Positions 23,158-33,885 of a stretch of 64,000 bases of DNA are shown here, one piece after another; positions within the stretch are counted from its first letter, which is position 1, and each line of letters starts with the position of its first letter. The DNA is from a virus. The notes below the pieces were generated by a model that was given only the letters and a program-made list of their open reading frames with translations, was not told the origin of the DNA and made no database searches. The stretch lies in IMG/VR virus record IMGVR_UViG_3300027976_000006, positions 1-64,000 of that record; one strand, 5' to 3'. The position numbers and the translations under genes are program-made.

Positions 23158-25113
23158 TTATTCTGGGTCAACTAACGCACGACCTTGCATAGCAGAGCGA
23201 ACCTCGTCGCTGACGTGCATTTGCTCATAAGCGGACAAATCAGGCCAGCGCCCGTGCATTTGAAAGAGCATCATAGCCCCCATAGTGACCGCCTGCGCAA
23301 AATCGTCTGGACCTGCCGGATCTCGCAATATACGATAGTGATCTCGCCCGCTACCAGACTCGGCCTTATCTTCAATAAGGTTAAGAAAATCGTGGAGTAA
23401 CCCCACATCCTCTGAACCTTTGTGATCGTATTGAAAGAACCTAATGATGTGCGACTTAATAAACTGACAGCAGTAGTTTAAAGCACGATTACGGTCCATC
23501 GTGTAATGATTTCGAGGGTGCAGCTGATTAGCCGGTTTGAAGTTAATTAATCCTCTTTTAGCCGGGCCGATGTAGGCTACTGCCAGTATATTGGCAATGT
23601 CCACACCAGACTGTACTAGTAGGGTTTCTCGGACAGTACCGGCTCCGGTGTAATCGTGTACAACATGGCTGCAATGAAATGTTTGCATAATACCAAGGAT
23701 AAGCCTAGCCTCCCGCACATGATCGTGCGGAGTCAAGCTGCGTAAACCATAAATAACATCCACACGCCCATCCGGAGTTAGTCCGCAAACCGCTACCGTG
23801 GTGTAAGATTGCAAACTCATACTAGATTTGCCACGACTGACACCACCGCCGCCCCAATCGACAGAGACAAAGCGGTAGATATAATGGTCAATATTATTTT
23901 TTGCTTCGTCAACAAGACAAGCCCAAGGAAGACAAGCAGCCTGCTTTAAGTCGGTCACTGTTACTAGCTTGGAACCACTGTCCCAGGACTCCCCGCAAAC
24001 TTCGTTGTAGAACACATTAATCGGAACATTGCCTTTTCCATTCAGTTTGTCTACAAGTTTTTGCCATTTTTCTGGGTCAGCGTAGTGCATAGGCATAATT
24101 AGCTGAGGAACATGATACCCAACAAACGACCACCGCCTATCTGCATGCCGATGCACCCAGCGTCCCGTGCCGCCTTGTGCAGCAGGCCGGGGATTTATAG
24201 GCTTTGCACATTTGGCACAAATTACGCCGGGCACAGTCTCGCTAATGCCGGAATGGGGAGGACCGATCATTTTGATCAGGTCATACTCTAGCGCCGGTAT
24301 ATTCCAGTGCCCGCAACCCGGGTGGGGACAACGGATAATCCATTCAGCCATGGACGAGTCGTTCCAAAGTTTTTCAATGGTATTGTCTAGCGTTTTGGGA
24401 GTACCGGCATATTGAATGATCCCCCAATCCCTGGAAGCCGACAATGTCTCGTGAATGATAGGTAAAAATGAAATGTCCATGTACTGGATTTCATCAATAC
24501 AATTTTTGTCTGCACTTACGCCACGAATTCTTTCAGCGTCGGTGTAAGCAAAAGAAAAAAGCATTTGAGACTTGTTCTTAAACGAACGCTGCAGCACATT
24601 GTTAACCGTAGTCTCCCCGGAGAATAAGCGGCCCACAGGGCTGCTTTCTATAAAAGGAGCTACGTAGTTTTGCGAAAATCTTCGCACCATTTCAAACAAT
24701 GGTGTGATATAAAGCGTTGAAAAATAAGGAATACAGTTGGCAAATAATACTCCTTGCGCTGCAAGTGAAGTGGACTTTGACACCTGTCTTCCTGTTTTTA
24801 ATAAGGTAGTGCGTGGCATCCTTGTTCTAAAGAAAGGAGCGAAAGGAAAATGGTCATGTAAGTGATAAGGTTTACCTCTGATGGATAGCAGCAGGGGTAA
24901 TAAAGGTTTCAAAGTTAAATAACCGGTTTTAGCCATAACATGCTGGACCATGCGTAACTGTTGAATTTGCTGAGTATCTAAAGAATTCTTCATGTAATCA
25001 GACAGCAGCGACGACTCCAGCATCGAACTAAAATCAATTTCAGTCTTTGACTCTCGTTCTTCTGCTAGCATCTGACTAGCAGTCTTTTTTATTGCGTTTA
25101 TTTCATTACTCAT
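23158..25113 (-). CDS. terL: Terminase large subunit (GpA-like ATPase plus RNase H-like nuclease)
   Basis: KTGRQVSKST (Walker A region), RIRGVSAD, CIDE (Walker B), GTPKT, CPHxxC/CxxC Zn motifs, FYNEVCG, SVDWG nuclease Asp, PDD. Confidence 0.85.
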   Translation of the reverse strand: MSNEINAIKKTASQMLAEERESKTEIDFSSMLESSLLSDYMKNSLDTQQIQQLRMVQHVMAKTGYLTLKPLLPLLLSIRGKPYHLHDHFPFAPFFRTRMPRTTLLKTGRQVSKSTSLAAQGVLFANCIPYFSTLYITPLFEMVRRFSQNYVAPFIESSPVGRLFSGETTVNNVLQRSFKNKSQMLFSFAYTDAERIRGVSADKNCIDEIQYMDISFLPIIHETLSASRDWGIIQYAGTPKTLDNTIEKLWNDSSMAEWIIRCPHPGCGHWNIPALEYDLIKMIGPPHSGISETVPGVICAKCAKPINPRPAAQGGTGRWVHRHADRRWSFVGYHVPQLIMPMHYADPEKWQKLVDKLNGKGNVPINVFYNEVCGESWDSGSKLVTVTDLKQAACLPWACLVDEAKNNIDHYIYRFVSVDWGGGGVSRGKSSMSLQSYTTVAVCGLTPDGRVDVIYGLRSLTPHDHVREARLILGIMQTFHCSHVVHDYTGAGTVRETLLVQSGVDIANILAVAYIGPAKRGLINFKPANQLHPRNHYTMDRNRALNYCCQFIKSHIIRFFQYDHKGSEDVGLLHDFLNLIEDKAESGSGRDHYRILRDPAGPDDFAQAVTMGAMMLFQMHGRWPDLSAYEQMHVSDEVRSAMQGRALVDPE

Positions 25114-26794: not shown

Positions 26795-27043
26795 ATGAAA
26801 AAGGAAAATTATATGGTGCCTAGCCCCGATATCGCAGCAGCTGAAACGCAAGCTTTGATCGTTCCAGTGCTTGTGGTTAGAAAAGACGGCAATGACACGA
26901 GTACGCAGTTAAGAATCAGTTGCATAGGAAATGGGTATTTAGTAAAGACGGGAAATACTCCAATTTATTACGCAACTAAAGAGGACATGGCGAAAGCTGT
27001 CTATTTGGGATTGTTAAGTCTAACCTGTGGCGTTGAAAAATGA
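26795..27043 (+). CDS. Hypothetical protein
   Basis: Coupled to the methyltransferase. Confidence 0.6.
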   Translation: MKKENYMVPSPDIAAAETQALIVPVLVVRKDGNDTSTQLRISCIGNGYLVKTGNTPIYYATKEDMAKAVYLGLLSLTCGVEK

Positions 27044-28299
27044 AATACTTATCTGTGTGCTCCGGCATAGAAGCAGCCACTGTCGCATGGCATCCACTTA
27101 AATGGGTGCCAGTGGCTTTTTCTGAAATTGATAAGTTTCCTTCCGCAGTACTCAGGCACCACTACCCAACCGTGCCTAACCTTGGCGACATGACTAAGTA
27201 TAAAGATTGGAAACCACATGCAGAAATCGACCTACTCGTCGGAGGAACTCCTTGCCAAAGTTTTAGCATCGCAGGATTACGCAAAGGTCTTGAAGACCCC
27301 AGAGGTAATCTTATGCTTACCTATCTTGCAATCGCTGAAAGTTACCAACCTCGGTGGCTCGTTTGGGAAAATGTCCCTGGCGTTCTGTCAAGTAACCAAG
27401 GAAGGGATTTTGGAACCTTCCTCGGAGCGCTGGGGAACTTGGGGTATGGGTTCGCCTTTAGGGTGCTGGACGCTCAATGGTTCGGAGTGGCGCAAAGACG
27501 TCGTCGTGTGTTCGTTGTCGGATGTCTTGGAGACGCAGGCCGTGCCGCCCAAGTTTTATTTGAGTCCGAAAGCGTGCGCCGGAATCCTACGCCGAGCCGC
27601 GAAAAGGGGCAAAAAATTGCCGCCACTCTTACAGATGGCTCTGGAGAGCGTGGCGTCGATGCCGATCAAATAGCCAATGGTAACTATGCAATTGGTACGG
27701 ATTGTTACAACGGTTCGATCACTGGTGAGGTAGCGGCAACGCTAGGCACACCGGGTAGTAGTTCTAATGCGTCAGGTCCTACAGTTATGCAAGCCATGTG
27801 CTTTGATCGACAAAGTAGTGGAGAGTATGGGACTGCACCAGTAGCTTCGACCATGGCTGCCCGCGATCACAAAGGTGCAAGCGACATCGTGGTACATCCA
27901 ATTGTTTTAATGGATCAGGGTGGCAGCGTAATGAATGTAATGACAGATGGCACAATTGGAACTTTGCGTAGAGAAACAAAAGGGCATGAACCTTCAATTC
28001 TTTGTTTTTCAACAGCAAAAAAGGCTGGAACATTGCGTGCCAACCCAGACAGTGGTTTTCAGTCAGACGGTTCTCCAGTTGAGGGGGTTGTTATTAACAC
28101 ATTCCCTTTGGCAGTTCGCCGTCTGACCCCTCGTGAATGCGAGCGACTTCAAGGATTTCCAGACGATTACACCGCGATTCCTTGGGGTAAAAAATCAGCA
28201 AGCGAATGTCCTGATGGTCTGCGTTACAAAGCATTAGGCAACTCAATGGCTGTGCCTGTAATGCGGTGGATTGGCGAAAGAATCGACAAGTTGAAGTAA
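27040..28299 (+). CDS. dcm: C5 DNA cytosine methyltransferase
   Basis: Motif I CSGIEA, IV GGTPCQSFS, VI ENV, VIII QRRRRVF, IX RRLTPRECERLQGFP, X GNS. Confidence 0.95.
   Translation: MKYLSVCSGIEAATVAWHPLKWVPVAFSEIDKFPSAVLRHHYPTVPNLGDMTKYKDWKPHAEIDLLVGGTPCQSFSIAGLRKGLEDPRGNLMLTYLAIAESYQPRWLVWENVPGVLSSNQGRDFGTFLGALGNLGYGFAFRVLDAQWFGVAQRRRRVFVVGCLGDAGRAAQVLFESESVRRNPTPSREKGQKIAATLTDGSGERGVDADQIANGNYAIGTDCYNGSITGEVAATLGTPGSSSNASGPTVMQAMCFDRQSSGEYGTAPVASTMAARDHKGASDIVVHPIVLMDQGGSVMNVMTDGTIGTLRRETKGHEPSILCFSTAKKAGTLRANPDSGFQSDGSPVEGVVINTFPLAVRRLTPRECERLQGFPDDYTAIPWGKKSASECPDGLRYKALGNSMAVPVMRWIGERIDKLK
27218..27673 (+). CDS. Overprinted alternative-frame ORF inside dcm (start may be ATG 27371 or 27446)
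   Basis: 151 open codons in the +1 frame, ending SLSDVLE...KFYLSPKACAGILRRAAKRGKKLP. Confidence 0.5.
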   Translation: MQKSTYSSEELLAKVLASQDYAKVLKTPEVILCLPILQSLKVTNLGGSFGKMSLAFCQVTKEGILEPSSERWGTWGMGSPLGCWTLNGSEWRKDVVVCSLSDVLETQAVPPKFYLSPKACAGILRRAAKRGKKLPPLLQMALESVASMPIK

Positions 28300-30010: not shown

Positions 30011-30607
30011 ATGAAAAACAAAGGTTACGAAGCGTGGGCGTCTCGGCTGCAATTCTTTAATGGAGAATTTGGTTTTGGCCCCCTTAAACTAATCAAAAAC
30101 GAAGACGGTAGGCTGCACTGTGACAACGGTCCAGCTTACATTAGTCTTACCAGAGTAATCTGGTACAAAAACGGCCAACTACACGGCATGGATGCGGATA
30201 AATTTGGTAGTATTTTATACTATTACGAAGGAGTGAGGATTCCTCCCCACTTTTTCACAAAGCCTAAATCCGTTACACTAAAGGAGGTATTGCAAAATCC
30301 GAATGCGGAAGTAAGATATGTGGGGATAAAGATCATTGGGCTGGATAATATTATGGCTTTGCCGACCACACTGGTGATCCACAAAGATGTGGATCAGTTT
30401 GGAAGAGAAAGAATTTTATTTGAAATCCCAAAAGTGTTTGACGAACCTACCTTGTATGTAAAGGTAGTTAATTCAACGGCAGAACCCGATGGTACTTATA
30501 AGAATTATTTCTTGTGCGTACCACCAACGATGAAGACCTGTTTAGAGGCGGTGGCGTGGACCAACTACATGAAGGCAGATGAATACTGTCCTTCGCAAGA
30601 ATCTTAG
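30011..30607 (+). CDS. DUF6745-like protein
   Basis: GRLHCDNGPA, NAEVR, VKVVNST.EPDGT.K.YFL.VPP, EAVAWT. Confidence 0.7.
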   Translation: MKNKGYEAWASRLQFFNGEFGFGPLKLIKNEDGRLHCDNGPAYISLTRVIWYKNGQLHGMDADKFGSILYYYEGVRIPPHFFTKPKSVTLKEVLQNPNAEVRYVGIKIIGLDNIMALPTTLVIHKDVDQFGRERILFEIPKVFDEPTLYVKVVNSTAEPDGTYKNYFLCVPPTMKTCLEAVAWTNYMKADEYCPSQES

Positions 30608-30617
30608 GAGTTATATC

Positions 30618-30944
30618 ATGAAGAAGTTTCAAGCGCGGCAAGGTGATATCTTTTTTACGGTAGTAGCTAAACCAAAGAATTTACACGGTATGAAAATACA
30701 CGACTCCCGAATTCTAGCGTTCGGTGAGGTGACTGGTCACAGTCACGCCCTCAAAGAAGGGTCAGCAGTGCAGCGTTATGTTAATGCGGGAGGAGATATT
30801 TATTTATTCTCCGAGGAAGAAACCAGCGTTGGGCACGACGAGCATTCCGATATAAAACTTCCAGCCAACAAATGGATCAAGGTTACACGACAACGGGAAT
30901 TTGATCCACTGGCTGCTAACCGACAGCGTACAGTTGCAGATTAA
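30618..30944 (+). CDS. Partner of DUF6745 (RQGD...GExTGHxH...HxEH...RQRE; His-rich beta protein)
   Basis: Motifs as listed; AGGAG RBS before ATG 30618. Confidence 0.7.
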   Translation: MKKFQARQGDIFFTVVAKPKNLHGMKIHDSRILAFGEVTGHSHALKEGSAVQRYVNAGGDIYLFSEEETSVGHDEHSDIKLPANKWIKVTRQREFDPLAANRQRTVAD

Positions 30945-30971: not shown

Positions 30972-30999
30972 AAGGGAGCAAGTGTTTGCTCCCTTTTTT
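30972..30999 (+). terminator. Intrinsic terminator
   Basis: aagggagcaa/ttgctccctt stem plus T-tract. Confidence 0.85.
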
Positions 31000-31037: not shown

Positions 31038-31355
31038 ATGGAAAAAGTAAAAAGTCAGTCGTCTTTAGTAAACCCTACTGGCAGCCCCGCTCTAAGCCTG
31101 AGCGAAGTGGCACAACAATACATAGGGCAGCAATGTGCTGTACTCTGTGCACGGTACAACTACCGTGGAATTATGAGCGCCGTAGGTTCAGATTTCATAA
31201 TATTGGCACAAGCTCGTGCCGTGGAAACTTCAGGGGCATCCTCACTGGAAGAACCGCAAACAGAAGATATCATCACTTCGAGCATAGTAATCAGCCTAGG
31301 TGCGATAGAAATCATTTATCAGCCACGCTGGTGCTTTGCACCGTTGGATAAATAA
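31038..31355 (+). CDS. Small beta-barrel protein, Sm/LSm-like fold predicted
   Basis: YIGQQCAVLC..YNYRGIMSAV..DFIILAQA...IVISLGAIEII resembles the Sm1/Sm2 pattern; AAGGA RBS. Confidence 0.55.
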   Translation: MEKVKSQSSLVNPTGSPALSLSEVAQQYIGQQCAVLCARYNYRGIMSAVGSDFIILAQARAVETSGASSLEEPQTEDIITSSIVISLGAIEIIYQPRWCFAPLDK

Positions 31356-31454
31356 TAATGCGTAAAATCGTAGATATAAGGGCTAGAGCATCGCTCTAGC
31401 CCCGTGGGCGTGTTTTAGCACAATGAAACCTTCACACATAAAAGGAGTGATGCA

Positions 31455-31604
31455 ATGATAAGAAGGTCTGTTAGCACAACGCATAAATCTGAATCTTGGT
31501 TTAGGTGTGTATCTTGGTCTAAACTTTTACGGCAGACTTGGTCTGCGTCTTGGTCTACTGCCCAACAAGAATCGTACAATGTAACAAGAGTCGCACGGCG
31601 GTAG
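31455..31604 (+). CDS. Divergent Ser/Trp/Arg mini-ORF (49 aa, MIRRSV...SWFRCVSWSK...WSASWS)
   Basis: AAGGAG RBS; ATGATAAGA start like the array units; tct-tgg relics. Confidence 0.6.
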   Translation: MIRRSVSTTHKSESWFRCVSWSKLLRQTWSASWSTAQQESYNVTRVARR

Positions 31605-31717
31605 ATCAATAATGATAATGAACTTTGGCCTAACCCCAAGACTTGCTATAAGTCTTGGGCACTCATCCATAGACTTCATGGTTTTTCTAAAAACGCTAAA
31701 TAATGGAGACATAAAAA

Positions 31718-31903
31718 ATGATAAGACTAGCATTCAGACCACGCCTTGTCGCCAAATCAAGATGTTGGTCTGTGCCTACCCCTTGGTCTAGTAATTGGGC
31801 CAAGTTTAGATCTGTATCTTGGAGTTGGGGTCGTTCTATATCTTTACATTATTGGCGTACTTGTTATCCTTACAGCCAAAGTTGGCACAAACCAATAAGG
31901 TAA
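31718..31903 (+). CDS. Divergent Ser/Trp/Arg mini-ORF (61 aa)
   Basis: GGAG RBS; MIR start; SW-rich. Confidence 0.6.
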   Translation: MIRLAFRPRLVAKSRCWSVPTPWSSNWAKFRSVSWSWGRSISLHYWRTCYPYSQSWHKPIR

Positions 31904-31924
31904 AATTCACTTTAGGAGTTATCA

Positions 31925-32089
31925 ATGATAATGAAAACAATTGATTTTAATACAGCCAGATCCCATGGGTGGTCTAGGCGACTTTATAAGTCTCGATCTT
32001 GGACTGCATATTGGGACCGGTCTAGAGGCCCGAGCGCGTCTTTATCTATGCTGTTTTCTACCTCTAAGTTTATAAGCCAACGACAGTAG
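31925..32089 (+). CDS. Divergent Ser/Trp/Arg mini-ORF (54 aa, MIMKTI...WSRR..SRSW)
   Basis: AGGAG RBS; ATGATA start. Confidence 0.55.
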   Translation: MIMKTIDFNTARSHGWSRRLYKSRSWTAYWDRSRGPSASLSMLFSTSKFISQRQ

Positions 32090-32152
32090 TATTGAGTCTT
32101 GGTCTAGGTCTAGGTCTGTGTCTTGGACTAAAAACAAAACTAGGAGTGCTAA

Positions 32153-32395
32153 ATGATAAGAAAAGTAACCATATGTCACCCAGATACTATGTCTGTGTCT
32201 TGGTCTAAGTCTTGGCCTGGGTCTGGGTCTGCGTCTCGGTTTGGGTCTTGGTCTGGGTCTTGGTCTGGGTCTTGGCCTGGGTCTGGGCCTTGGTCTGGGT
32301 CTTGGTCTGGGTCTTGGTTTTGGTCTTGGTCTTGGTCTCGGTCTCGGTTTGGGCCTGTGTCTTGGTCTAAAAACAAAACTAGGAGTGCTAAATGA
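32153..32395 (+). CDS. Array unit 1: MIRKVT leader, (Ser-Trp/Gly/Arg)n, TRSAK tail (80 aa)
   Basis: AGGAG RBS, ATGA coupling. Confidence 0.65.
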   Translation: MIRKVTICHPDTMSVSWSKSWPGSGSASRFGSWSGSWSGSWPGSGPWSGSWSGSWFWSWSWSRSRFGPVSWSKNKTRSAK

Positions 32396-32565
32396 TAAGA
32401 AAAGTAACCGTATGTCACCCAGCTATGTCTGTGTCTTGGTCTGGGTCTTGGTCTCGGTCTCGGTCTGCGTCTTGGCCTGGGTCTTGGCCTGGGTTTGGGT
32501 CTTGGTCTGAGTCTCGGTTTGGGTCTTGGTCTTGGGCTGAAAACAAAACCAGAAGTGCTAAATGA
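32392..32565 (+). CDS. Array unit 2 (57 aa; below the ORF-track cutoff)
   Basis: MIRKVTVCHPAMSVSWSGSWSRSRSASWPG...ENKTRSAK; ATGA overlaps at both ends. Confidence 0.65.
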   Translation: MIRKVTVCHPAMSVSWSGSWSRSRSASWPGSWPGFGSWSESRFGSWSWAENKTRSAK

Positions 32566-32774
32566 TAAGAAAAGTAACCTTATGTAACCAGGATGCTCTG
32601 TCTTGGTCTGGGTCTCGGTCTAGGTCTGGGTCTGGGTCTTGGTCTGGGTCTTGGCCTGGGTCTGGGCCTGGGTCTGGGTCTTGGTCTGGGTCTTGGTTTT
32701 GGTCTTGGTCTTGGACTAGGTCTCGGTTTGGGTCTATGTCTTGGGCTAAAAGCAAAACCAGGAGTGCTAAATGA
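32562..32774 (+). CDS. Array unit 3 (70 aa)
   Basis: Same leader and tail; ATGA coupling. Confidence 0.65.
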   Translation: MIRKVTLCNQDALSWSGSRSRSGSGSWSGSWPGSGPGSGSWSGSWFWSWSWTRSRFGSMSWAKSKTRSAK

Positions 32775-32989
32775 TAAGAAAAGTAACCATATGCCACCCA
32801 GATACTATGTCTTGGTCTTGGTCTAAGTCTTGGCCTGGGTCTGGGTCTGCGTCTCGGTTTGGGTCTTGGTCTGGGTCTTGGTCTGGGTCTTGGCCTGTGT
32901 CTCGGCCTGGGTCTCGGTCTCGGTTTAGGTCTGGGTCTTGGTCTGAGTCTCGGTTTGGGTCTAAAAACGAAACCAGGAGTGCTAAATGA
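32771..32989 (+). CDS. Array unit 4 (72 aa)
   Basis: Same leader and tail; ATGA coupling. Confidence 0.65.
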   Translation: MIRKVTICHPDTMSWSWSKSWPGSGSASRFGSWSGSWSGSWPVSRPGSRSRFRSGSWSESRFGSKNETRSAK

Positions 32990-33237
32990 TAAGAAAAGTA
33001 ACCTTATGTAACCAAGATACTATGTCTGGGTCTTGGCCTGGGTCTTGGCCTGTGTCTAGGTCTGGGTCTGGGTTTTGGTCTTGGTCTATATCTATGTCTT
33101 GGTCTGGGTCTTGGCCTGTGTCTCGGCCTGGGTCTCGGTCTCGGTTTAGGTCTGGGTCTTGGTCTGGGTCTAGGTTGGGGTCTCAGTCTTGGTCTGACAT
33201 ATATCTACCGACAGGAGTAACTTATGATGAAGATTAA
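32986..33237 (+). CDS. Array unit 5 (83 aa, unique tail)
   Basis: Same leader; the tail contains the AGGAG RBS of the next gene. Confidence 0.65.
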   Translation: MIRKVTLCNQDTMSGSWPGSWPVSRSGSGFWSWSISMSWSGSWPVSRPGSRSRFRSGSWSGSRLGSQSWSDIYLPTGVTYDED

Positions 33238-33570: not shown

Positions 33571-33885
33571 ATGGAACTACACGGCGGTCCGTTCAAACGT
33601 AGACGAAGAAAACCTCCAGATCAAATCTGGATGCAATTTATGTCTGACGACGAAAAAGAGAAAATGAAAATAGAACAATGTCAGACCGTATCTTTGTCGG
33701 ATGTCGGACTGCCGGTACGCGTAGCTAACACGTTAGAAAATTATGGTTTATTGACCATAGGGGACTTGGCTAAAATAACGATAGAGGATCTAGAAAGCAT
33801 TCAAAACCTTGGCGAGATAACCATAGCTCGCTGTGTTAGACTGCTGGATGAAATGTGCCTACCCCATAAATTACGCAAAAAATAA
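33571..33885 (+). CDS. Stand-alone RNA polymerase alpha-subunit C-terminal-domain-like protein
   Basis: LSDVGLPVRVANTLENYGLLTIGDL...DLESIQNLGEITI matches the alpha-CTD consensus L.L.VR..N.L...GI.TI.DL...L..I.NLG.KS. Confidence 0.8.
   Translation: MELHGGPFKRRRRKPPDQIWMQFMSDDEKEKMKIEQCQTVSLSDVGLPVRVANTLENYGLLTIGDLAKITIEDLESIQNLGEITIARCVRLLDEMCLPHKLRKK

Follow-up and report, generated by a model that had tools for sequence, protein, structure and literature searches.

A widespread phage module pairs an Sm-like gene with genes for Ser-X micro-proteins

Introduction

What does a phage make from a small β-barrel gene followed by a row of units whose junctions are constant and whose hexamer tracts vary? 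This layout occupies positions 31,038 to 33,237 of the window, by which we mean the whole 64-kb stretch of DNA analyzed here, the first 64 kb of a 156,975-bp phage record in IMG/VR (IMGVR_UViG_3300027976_000006; estimated completeness 76%). A first-pass annotation, made from the letters alone, had likened the arrangement to clustered regularly interspaced short palindromic repeats (CRISPR) and proposed that it yields either diversified cationic, Trp-rich peptides or a set of repeat RNAs bound by an Sm-like protein. We find that the Sm-like gene and an open reading frame (ORF) for a (Ser-X)n micro-protein constitute a self-contained two-gene module, conserved across divergent phages with variable neighbors and with its two products kept separate. 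In the clade to which the window belongs, the micro-protein gene has been multiplied to 8–25 copies.

Results

The Sm-like gene is followed by an array of coupled genes

All features of the module lie on the forward strand. The gene for the 105-aa Sm-fold protein (31038–31355) is followed by eight tiny coupled genes, five of which are built from a hexamer repeat. The three that come first are diverged members of the same family: a 49-aa protein with an MIRR start and its own GGAG ribosome site (31455–31604), present as an unnamed entry in the public protein collection; a 61-aa protein with an MIRL start and seven Trp residues (31718–31903), modeled by AlphaFold2 with zero secondary structure; and a 54-aa protein with an MIMK start (31925–32089). 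A truncated unit read from the sequence, consisting of a tract end, a tail and a junction without a start codon (32097–32156), precedes the five complete units. These are unit 1 (80 aa, 32153–32395), unit 2 (57 aa, 32392–32565), unit 3 (70 aa, 32562–32774), unit 4 (72 aa, 32771–32989) and unit 5 (83 aa, 32986–33237). Each of the five, at 57–83 codons, holds 18–29 in-phase GTCTNG hexamers in which position 5 is any of the four bases. Unit 5 has a tail unlike the others, and its reading frame extends over the start of the gene that follows (33224).

The junctions share an invariant 26-mer present in five exact copies (at 32145, 32384, 32554, 32763 and 32978; 0 in shuffles), in every one of which an ORF ends at TGA and its successor begins at ATG. 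The ribosome site AGGAG is placed 6 nt 5′ of this ATG, with AGAAG in its place upstream of unit 3. Thus, the features listed by the first-pass annotation (terminator, hairpin, three diverged mini-ORFs, truncated unit, five units and the 26-mer with its ribosome site) are all present. Its CRISPR-like logic was not supported: what stays constant at the junctions is a boundary between genes, comprising a stop, a start and a Shine-Dalgarno sequence, that was duplicated recently. We rejected a CRISPR array because the "repeats" are these boundaries, the "spacers" are related microsatellite tracts inside ORFs, and a defense-system scan of seven proteins of the locus gave zero matches.

A second assembly of the same phage (L131) encodes an Sm-like protein 100% identical to that of the window, and identity over the 1.6 kb that precede the array is at least 99.5%. 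The start of its array matches the window as well, and therefore the array itself is real, with the number and order of units given here as read from one assembly. The tracts of the two assemblies differ by an 18-nt indel and a cluster of substitutions, both in unit 1, and by a mosaic exchange; the L131 contig ends inside the array.

The pair recurs across divergent phages

The association was followed in both directions. In the reverse test, we collected viral contigs with at least five consecutive GGTCTN hexamers, of which there are at least 120. Their tracts sit in small ORFs (median 70 aa) in which (Ser-[Trp/Gly/Arg])n comes after a short basic leader. Among the matches listed for an iterated profile of the window protein, an Sm-like ORF is present in 50 tract loci, and for 47 of 51 Sm-like ORFs the tract begins within 400 nt downstream on the same strand (median ∼50 nt), compared with ∼3% for random placement by a rough estimate.

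The forward test used eight Sm-like query sequences and no tract information, and was applied to the best 80 of 193 matching viral stretches. Twelve of these contigs end within 150 nt after the gene, leaving 68 evaluable loci. A downstream (Ser-X)n ORF, defined by at least 60% Ser in one alternating register, is present in 57 of the 68, and the start of a hexamer tract is already visible in nine of the 12 contigs that end just past the Sm-like gene. Gly, Trp and Arg account for 80% of the X residues in the forward-test loci, where Leu and Cys are rare. The start of the (Ser-X)n ORF overlaps the stop of the Sm-like gene by 4 nt in 18 of 48 non-redundant cases. The leaders are basic, the commonest being M-R-G-L-K-Q-K-Y-R-S.

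The pairing is widespread, occurring in well over a hundred uncultured phage contigs. The link that the first-pass annotation drew between the Sm-like protein and the array is real, and it reaches far beyond what could be seen from the window. The Sm-like proteins of these cassettes form at least two divergent subfamilies that profile comparison ties to each other and to the window clade (95% and 98% probability). Flanking genes vary from cassette to cassette and include a nucleotide kinase, an RNA ligase, a dCMP deaminase and many unknowns.

Some loci depart from the simple pair. The entire Sm-like-plus-tract cassette is tandemly duplicated in one contig (L195:9193-10233), repeated micro-protein genes with the leader MIKKSIYKRN are found in three others (L169, L185 and L187), and the more distant contigs among the phage's relatives (the L131–L135 set) carry two Sm-like paralogues apiece.

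The 105-aa protein is predicted to adopt an Sm fold

An AlphaFold2 model of the 105-aa protein, built with 19 homologues, has one helix followed by five strands, with a predicted local distance difference test score (pLDDT) of 77.7. The helix spans residues 21–26, and DSSP assigns six strand segments, two of them adjacent (83–86 and 90–94), which we read as the five-strand Sm sheet. As modeled, the protein has the N-terminal helix and the strongly bent five-stranded antiparallel sheet of the Sm/LSm fold. The top Foldseek matches are yeast Lsm1-7, P. abyssi Sm and A. fulgidus Sm1 (E 3e-4 to 3e-3; target-normalized TM-score 0.6–0.8), in agreement with the first-pass description of a small Sm-like β-barrel. 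In predicted viral structures, most of the best matches are phage proteins with no name, and one match carries the annotation of an RNA-binding protein.

At the sequence level, no curated Sm-clan family matched above threshold; the sub-threshold Pfam matches are DUF2642, DUF6897, SM-ATX and LSM14. DUF2642 appears below threshold in 17 of 19 members (best E 1.8e-5), and the window protein scores 14.2 bits against a cut-off of 22.7. A sequence search of the PDB with the 105-aa protein gave no match, and hhalign relates the window protein to the wider Sm-like subfamily A with 95% probability.

The micro-proteins are read in the Ser-Trp frame

The variable positions of the hexamer are wobble positions in the Gly-Leu frame and in a minus-strand Arg-Pro frame, and for this reason the Ser-Trp frame was put to test. 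We used nine related phage loci whose 105-aa homologue is 68–71% identical to that of the window. Each contains 10–25 small ORFs around the Sm-like gene, with a MIR(K/R) start and 41–85 codons, mostly non-repetitive. Across 68 non-redundant diverged units, the MIRK frame is the sole one to stay open. The +1 frame contains 110 stops, compared with 119 ± 7 after codon shuffling, and the remaining frames are also at the null level. We therefore rejected a Gly-Leu (+1) coding frame, which is closed at the chance rate in these relatives, as well as chained minus-strand Asp-Gln/Pro ORFs with GTGA overlaps, whose frame is likewise closed at the chance rate and lacks ribosome sites.

Coupling between the units is close. 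Stop and start overlap by 4 or 1 nt in 53 of 81 adjacent unit pairs, and in many units the TGGAG ribosome site of the next gene is built on the last Trp codon of the preceding one; this C-terminal Trp sits five residues from the C-terminus in 52 of 81 units. The small ORFs thus appear to be real, translationally coupled genes read in the Ser-Trp frame, each with its own ribosome site.

The diverged units encode short, basic, Trp-rich proteins that are predicted to be disordered (median 61 aa; median isoelectric point 10.1; W 11.5%, S 17.3%, R 8.8%). In the family alignment, about five Trp columns are conserved at 90% or more, spaced ∼10 residues apart and usually in the context S-x-S-W, while mean column identity is 15%. 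AlphaFold2 with a 71-sequence alignment predicts zero secondary structure (pLDDT 58.8; predicted TM-score 0.13). Between orthologous units of different phages, Trp is 98% conserved versus 84% overall, and TGG codons show 0.015 differences per site versus 0.103 in other codons. The reading as cationic, Trp-rich peptides is thereby borne out, with a sole open frame and Trp codons under strong purifying selection. The accompanying division into constant leader, variable core and constant tail as functional parts fared less well: close relatives keep only the short basic N-terminus, the Trp residues and the C-terminal Trp within the next ribosome site, and the wider class keeps a basic leader.

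Database searches recover little of this family. The micro-proteins have no match in Pfam, PHROG, NCBIfam or PADLOC, and an exhaustive family-profile search of 1.84 billion representative proteins returned six true members only, plus one spurious eukaryotic repeat protein. A word-indexed family-profile search gave zero matches, the ESM Atlas yielded no usable match for a micro-protein, and a scan of viral contigs for the junction signature found mostly single chance matches outside the known clade. The public protein collection lacks the five window units with these starts. Two database proteins (P0056 and P0063) consist of a wrong-frame translation of an upstream tract, Gly-Arg or Val-Trp, joined to the Sm-like gene.

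The micro-proteins may be partners of the Sm-like protein

We consider it somewhat probable that the locus is a two-gene module, expanded here into an array, whose Sm-like protein works with detachable, multivalent disordered partners. The micro-proteins would be made together with the Sm-like protein and would act as such partners; contacts would be made by Trp and Arg, Ser and Gly would space them, and the short basic N-terminus might serve for docking. To a hub that binds RNA or peptides, the micro-proteins would bring additional sticky interactions, with RNA or with a host factor. For a functional partnership as such, we judge the chances to be evenly balanced, and a specific ribonucleoprotein or condensate role appears rather unlikely. 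More speculative still is the full scheme of a two-component phage ribonucleoprotein or condensate, in which the micro-proteins would form a detachable tail of Trp/Arg stickers and Ser/Gly spacers, slippage would vary its length and valency, and the 8–25-copy arrays would be a diversified repertoire molded by conflict with a host factor.

Several observations weigh against such a partnership. Adjacency is a signal of co-inheritance and co-expression and falls short of binding. In none of 132 local ORFs, nor in the 12 longer database homologues that were read, is an Sm-like protein fused to a tract, so that no fusion proves a physical link; the extra length of the database homologues reflects gene-calling artefacts. 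Four more distant Sm-like loci have only short chains of family-like ORFs nearby, several kb away. In an alignment judged by eye, the window protein does not retain the canonical uridine-pocket residues, Asn in Sm1 and Arg in Sm2, and RNA binding by the Sm-like protein is therefore not assured. Lastly, selection outside the Trp codons is weak, with 45 synonymous versus 75 non-synonymous single-change codons between orthologous units. Complex prediction for the Sm-like protein with a micro-protein scored 0.00, a result that weighs neither for nor against binding.

The strongest competitor is that the micro-proteins act alone, as cationic, Trp-rich membrane-active peptides or as GW/WG-like Trp hooks that trap a host protein, with the Sm-like gene a mere co-expressed neighbor. 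Conserved Trp residues, flanked mostly by Ser or other small residues in hypervariable, disordered and basic sequence, match the W-motifs that bind Argonaute (PMC4615383; viral mimic PMC2904775), which supports independent action. The micro-protein family also turns over fast between related phages, and its array has grown to 10–25 copies while the Sm-like gene is still single. However, the pair has been kept through deep divergence, with its stop/start overlap, while its surroundings change; no unit contains a hydrophobic segment, and the phage has no Piwi-domain gene. On balance, we regard independent action as unlikely.

The tracts arise by slippage and selection points to the peptide

Several features of the units trace the tracts to a repeat. 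The two-codon register persists in non-repetitive relatives, where 84% of Trp residues share one parity compared with 64 ± 1% in shuffles, and the alternate register of old units is 28% Ser. TCT makes up 55% of Ser codons in old units versus 25% genome-wide, and the low-complexity units of other phages use the same TCT-NGG dicodons. New tracts are born by slippage of a hexamer consisting of a Ser codon plus TGG, and changes at the first position of TGG then yield Gly and Arg. As copies age, they decay and lose the repeat, and protection is then essentially confined to the tryptophans. We read the five window units as the youngest family members, generated by gene-cassette duplication and hexamer slippage, and the three upstream ORFs as older and decaying. 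The marks of a disordered region born from a tandem repeat are found here: an in-frame hexamer unit, an 18-nt indel and mosaic difference between assemblies, and no predicted structure. Very probably, these are real coupled genes born from a microsatellite. A diversity-generating retroelement was rejected because the 157-kb record (76% complete by estimate) contains no RVT_1 match to indicate a reverse transcriptase.

Is it instead the nucleic acid that functions, with (GGUCUN)n serving the Sm-like protein as a binding platform or G-rich structure and the ORFs incidental? Hexamer positions 1 and 4 are invariant in the window, the X codon is NGG in 96–97% of cases across lineages, and T precedes TGG in 70% of cases versus 36% genome-wide, all of which this explanation would accommodate. 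The Ser codon, however, depends on the lineage (by ORF: TCT 21, TCG 19, TCA 3, AGC 3 and AGT 2) and is uniform within each ORF (median share 1.00), so that no single hexamer is conserved. Wobble deviation within tracts is equal at Ser codons (3.9%) and Gly/Arg codons (4.0%), and in old MIRK units GGG falls to 35% of Gly codons; a constraint on GG or on a G-quadruplex is thus not supported. These old units lose their periodicity, yet they stay open and keep their Trp codons, and it is the Ser-X frame whose start codons, leaders and ribosome sites are conserved. The wobble T before TGG changes between orthologues at a rate of 0.11–0.14 versus a background of 0.13, and is therefore a footprint of descent and not a selected RNA code. 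For the same reason, we rejected an RNA-level T-TGG-NNT code, for which the bias is real but not conserved between orthologues.

Function at the RNA or DNA level is accordingly very improbable, and the repeat RNAs and hexamer alphabet of the first-pass annotation were not upheld, given Ser codons that vary by lineage and wobble sites that are not selectively conserved. The lineage-specific, tract-uniform Ser codons, together with equal synonymous freezing, indicate that the tracts are young slippage products and that selection would be on the peptide. Leu and Cys are as reachable from TGG as Gly and Arg and yet are rare, which likewise points to selection on the peptide. The NGG pattern itself is best explained by Gly and Arg codons descended from a founder TGG in young, slippage-homogenized tracts.

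Neighboring genes and the remaining explanations

Upstream of the Sm-like gene are a DUF6745 gene (30011–30607, forward strand; Pfam DUF6745, E 9e-25; phrog_27831) and a small gene with a His motif, "RQGD" (probable start 30615, end 30944, forward strand). The DUF6745, RQGD and Sm-like trio is kept in all close relatives. Both neighbors are specific to this clade: in 200 loci of the wider cassette RQGD had no match, and DUF6745 had one marginal match only (E 5e-4). The RQGD protein has no match in the PDB, Pfam or NCBIfam, and its Atlas neighbors are unnamed viral clusters. Compared with L131 (7578–7904), the RQGD gene (window 30615–30941) is 84% identical, while the flanking DUF6745 and Sm-like genes are 99.5% and 100% identical; this divergence looks like a local patch of mosaicism or recombination.

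These neighbors bear on the possibility that the array encodes precursors of ribosomally synthesized and post-translationally modified peptides, each with a short leader ahead of a Trp-rich core that varies, and with maturation by an enzyme, for example the adjacent His-motif protein. A tandem row of precursor-like genes whose N-termini are conserved and whose cores vary would suit such a system, as would the conservation of the His-motif and DUF6745 proteins beside the array in the window clade. We nevertheless rejected a precursor array as highly improbable, because the 157-kb record has no radical-SAM enzyme and because the wider cassette has only the Sm-like gene in common, with variable neighbors among which there is no recognizable maturase. 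Least probable of all is a functionless locus, produced by neutral or selfish microsatellite expansion in dispensable ORFs or by misassembly: selection outside Trp is weak, the tracts differ between assemblies and many contigs break at them, but Trp codons differ about seven-fold less often, conservation of the cassette extends to well over a hundred contigs, the locus is the same in independent assemblies, and Leu and Cys remain rare where Gly and Arg are common.

Two structured elements border the Sm-like gene. An intrinsic terminator (30972–30995, forward strand), with a 10-bp stem containing five G-C pairs, a 4-nt loop and a T run, closes the upstream operon, and the module begins after it. 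Between the Sm-like gene and the array is a hairpin with a perfect 10-bp stem and a 3-nt loop (31380–31402, forward strand); the 111 nt around it have a folding energy of −30.7 kcal/mol (z = −2.8), and the terminator scan did not call it because it lacks an adjacent T run. A 13-codon ORF, MRKIVDIRARASL (31358–31399, forward strand), begins 2 nt past the Sm-like stop and ends within this hairpin. Because the micro-protein gene of other phages begins exactly there, the ORF is possibly a vestige of the canonical coupled gene.

Further from the module, a stand-alone 104-aa protein (33571–33885, forward strand) matches the C-terminal domain of the bacterial RNA polymerase alpha subunit (PF03118, E 1e-10; NCBIfam rpoA models) and could serve the phage as a decoy or as a modulator of host transcription. 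A few kb upstream of the module are a large terminase subunit of the gpA type (23158–25113, reverse strand) and a C5 cytosine DNA methyltransferase (27040–28299, forward strand). Beyond the window, the same record contains two more repeat-built, Trp-rich small ORFs, at 100710–100958 (forward strand) and 76996–77118 (reverse strand); the repeat unit of one is LPRWTL-type and ∼14 aa long, and that of the other is NRWRS/NRWCG. Contigs of this phage and its relatives (L131, L133 and L135; L132 and L134) were binned into metagenome-assembled genomes of Gemmataceae, Phycisphaerales (Lake Mendota) and Acidimicrobiaceae. Two of these three genomes belong to Planctomycetota, a weak hint of a host in that phylum.

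Discussion

None of the ingredients of this locus is new in kind: Sm-like folds, disordered proteins born from repeats and coupled operons are all known. The first-pass annotation knew of no characterized system with this layout, and in the literature searched we likewise found no published description of the conserved pairing, of the Ser-X/Trp micro-protein class or of its expansion into an array. If the pairing is functional, it would represent a widespread, undescribed phage module in which an ancient RNA-associated fold is combined with a partner remade from a six-base stutter, and a new entry point to how phages handle RNA or host factors. It would also provide a naturally occurring, readily manipulated example of how genes are born from a microsatellite, and a disordered protein family in which only the tryptophans matter. 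For annotation, gene callers miss these genes or choose the wrong frame.

Among characterized proteins, eukaryotic SmD1, SmD3, SmB and LSm4 combine an Sm core with disordered tails of RG or GR dipeptide repeats. The resemblance, by analogy, would lie in joining an Sm-fold core to a basic, disordered dipeptide-repeat segment. In the eukaryotic proteins the repeat is fused and Arg-Gly, whereas in these phages it is a separate, coupled polypeptide of Ser-(Trp/Gly/Arg), and ring formation and RNA binding are putative.

A different likeness is offered by the Ago-hook proteins GW182/TNRC6 and their viral mimic, SPMMV P1, whose W-motifs bind Argonaute (PMC4615383, PMC2904775). Like the micro-proteins, they appear to hold several Trp residues in hypervariable, low-complexity disordered sequence in which only Trp is conserved. 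They are large proteins of eukaryotes or a plant virus, whereas the micro-proteins are 40–110 aa, mostly Ser-Trp and encoded by bacteriophages, with no Argonaute link shown. Closer in setting are GoF, MotB.1 and Frd.2 of the Tevenvirinae (T4), which have an LSm-like fold and share with the window protein a small size, an uncharacterized status, a predicted fold of this class and a suspected role with RNA (PMC12152347). No sequence relationship to them is shown, and the abstract names no repeat micro-protein partner (PMC12152347).

The nearest parallel in origin is with the Sm ribonucleoproteins encoded by Borgs, which have disordered N-termini made of tandem repeats with units of 4–17 aa (PMC9879509). 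Both cases combine an Sm protein of a mobile element with a recent, fast-evolving nucleotide tandem repeat that encodes a disordered region. In the Borg proteins, the repeat is part of the Sm gene itself, at the N-terminal end, whereas in the phages it forms a separate downstream gene of dipeptide units (PMC9879509).

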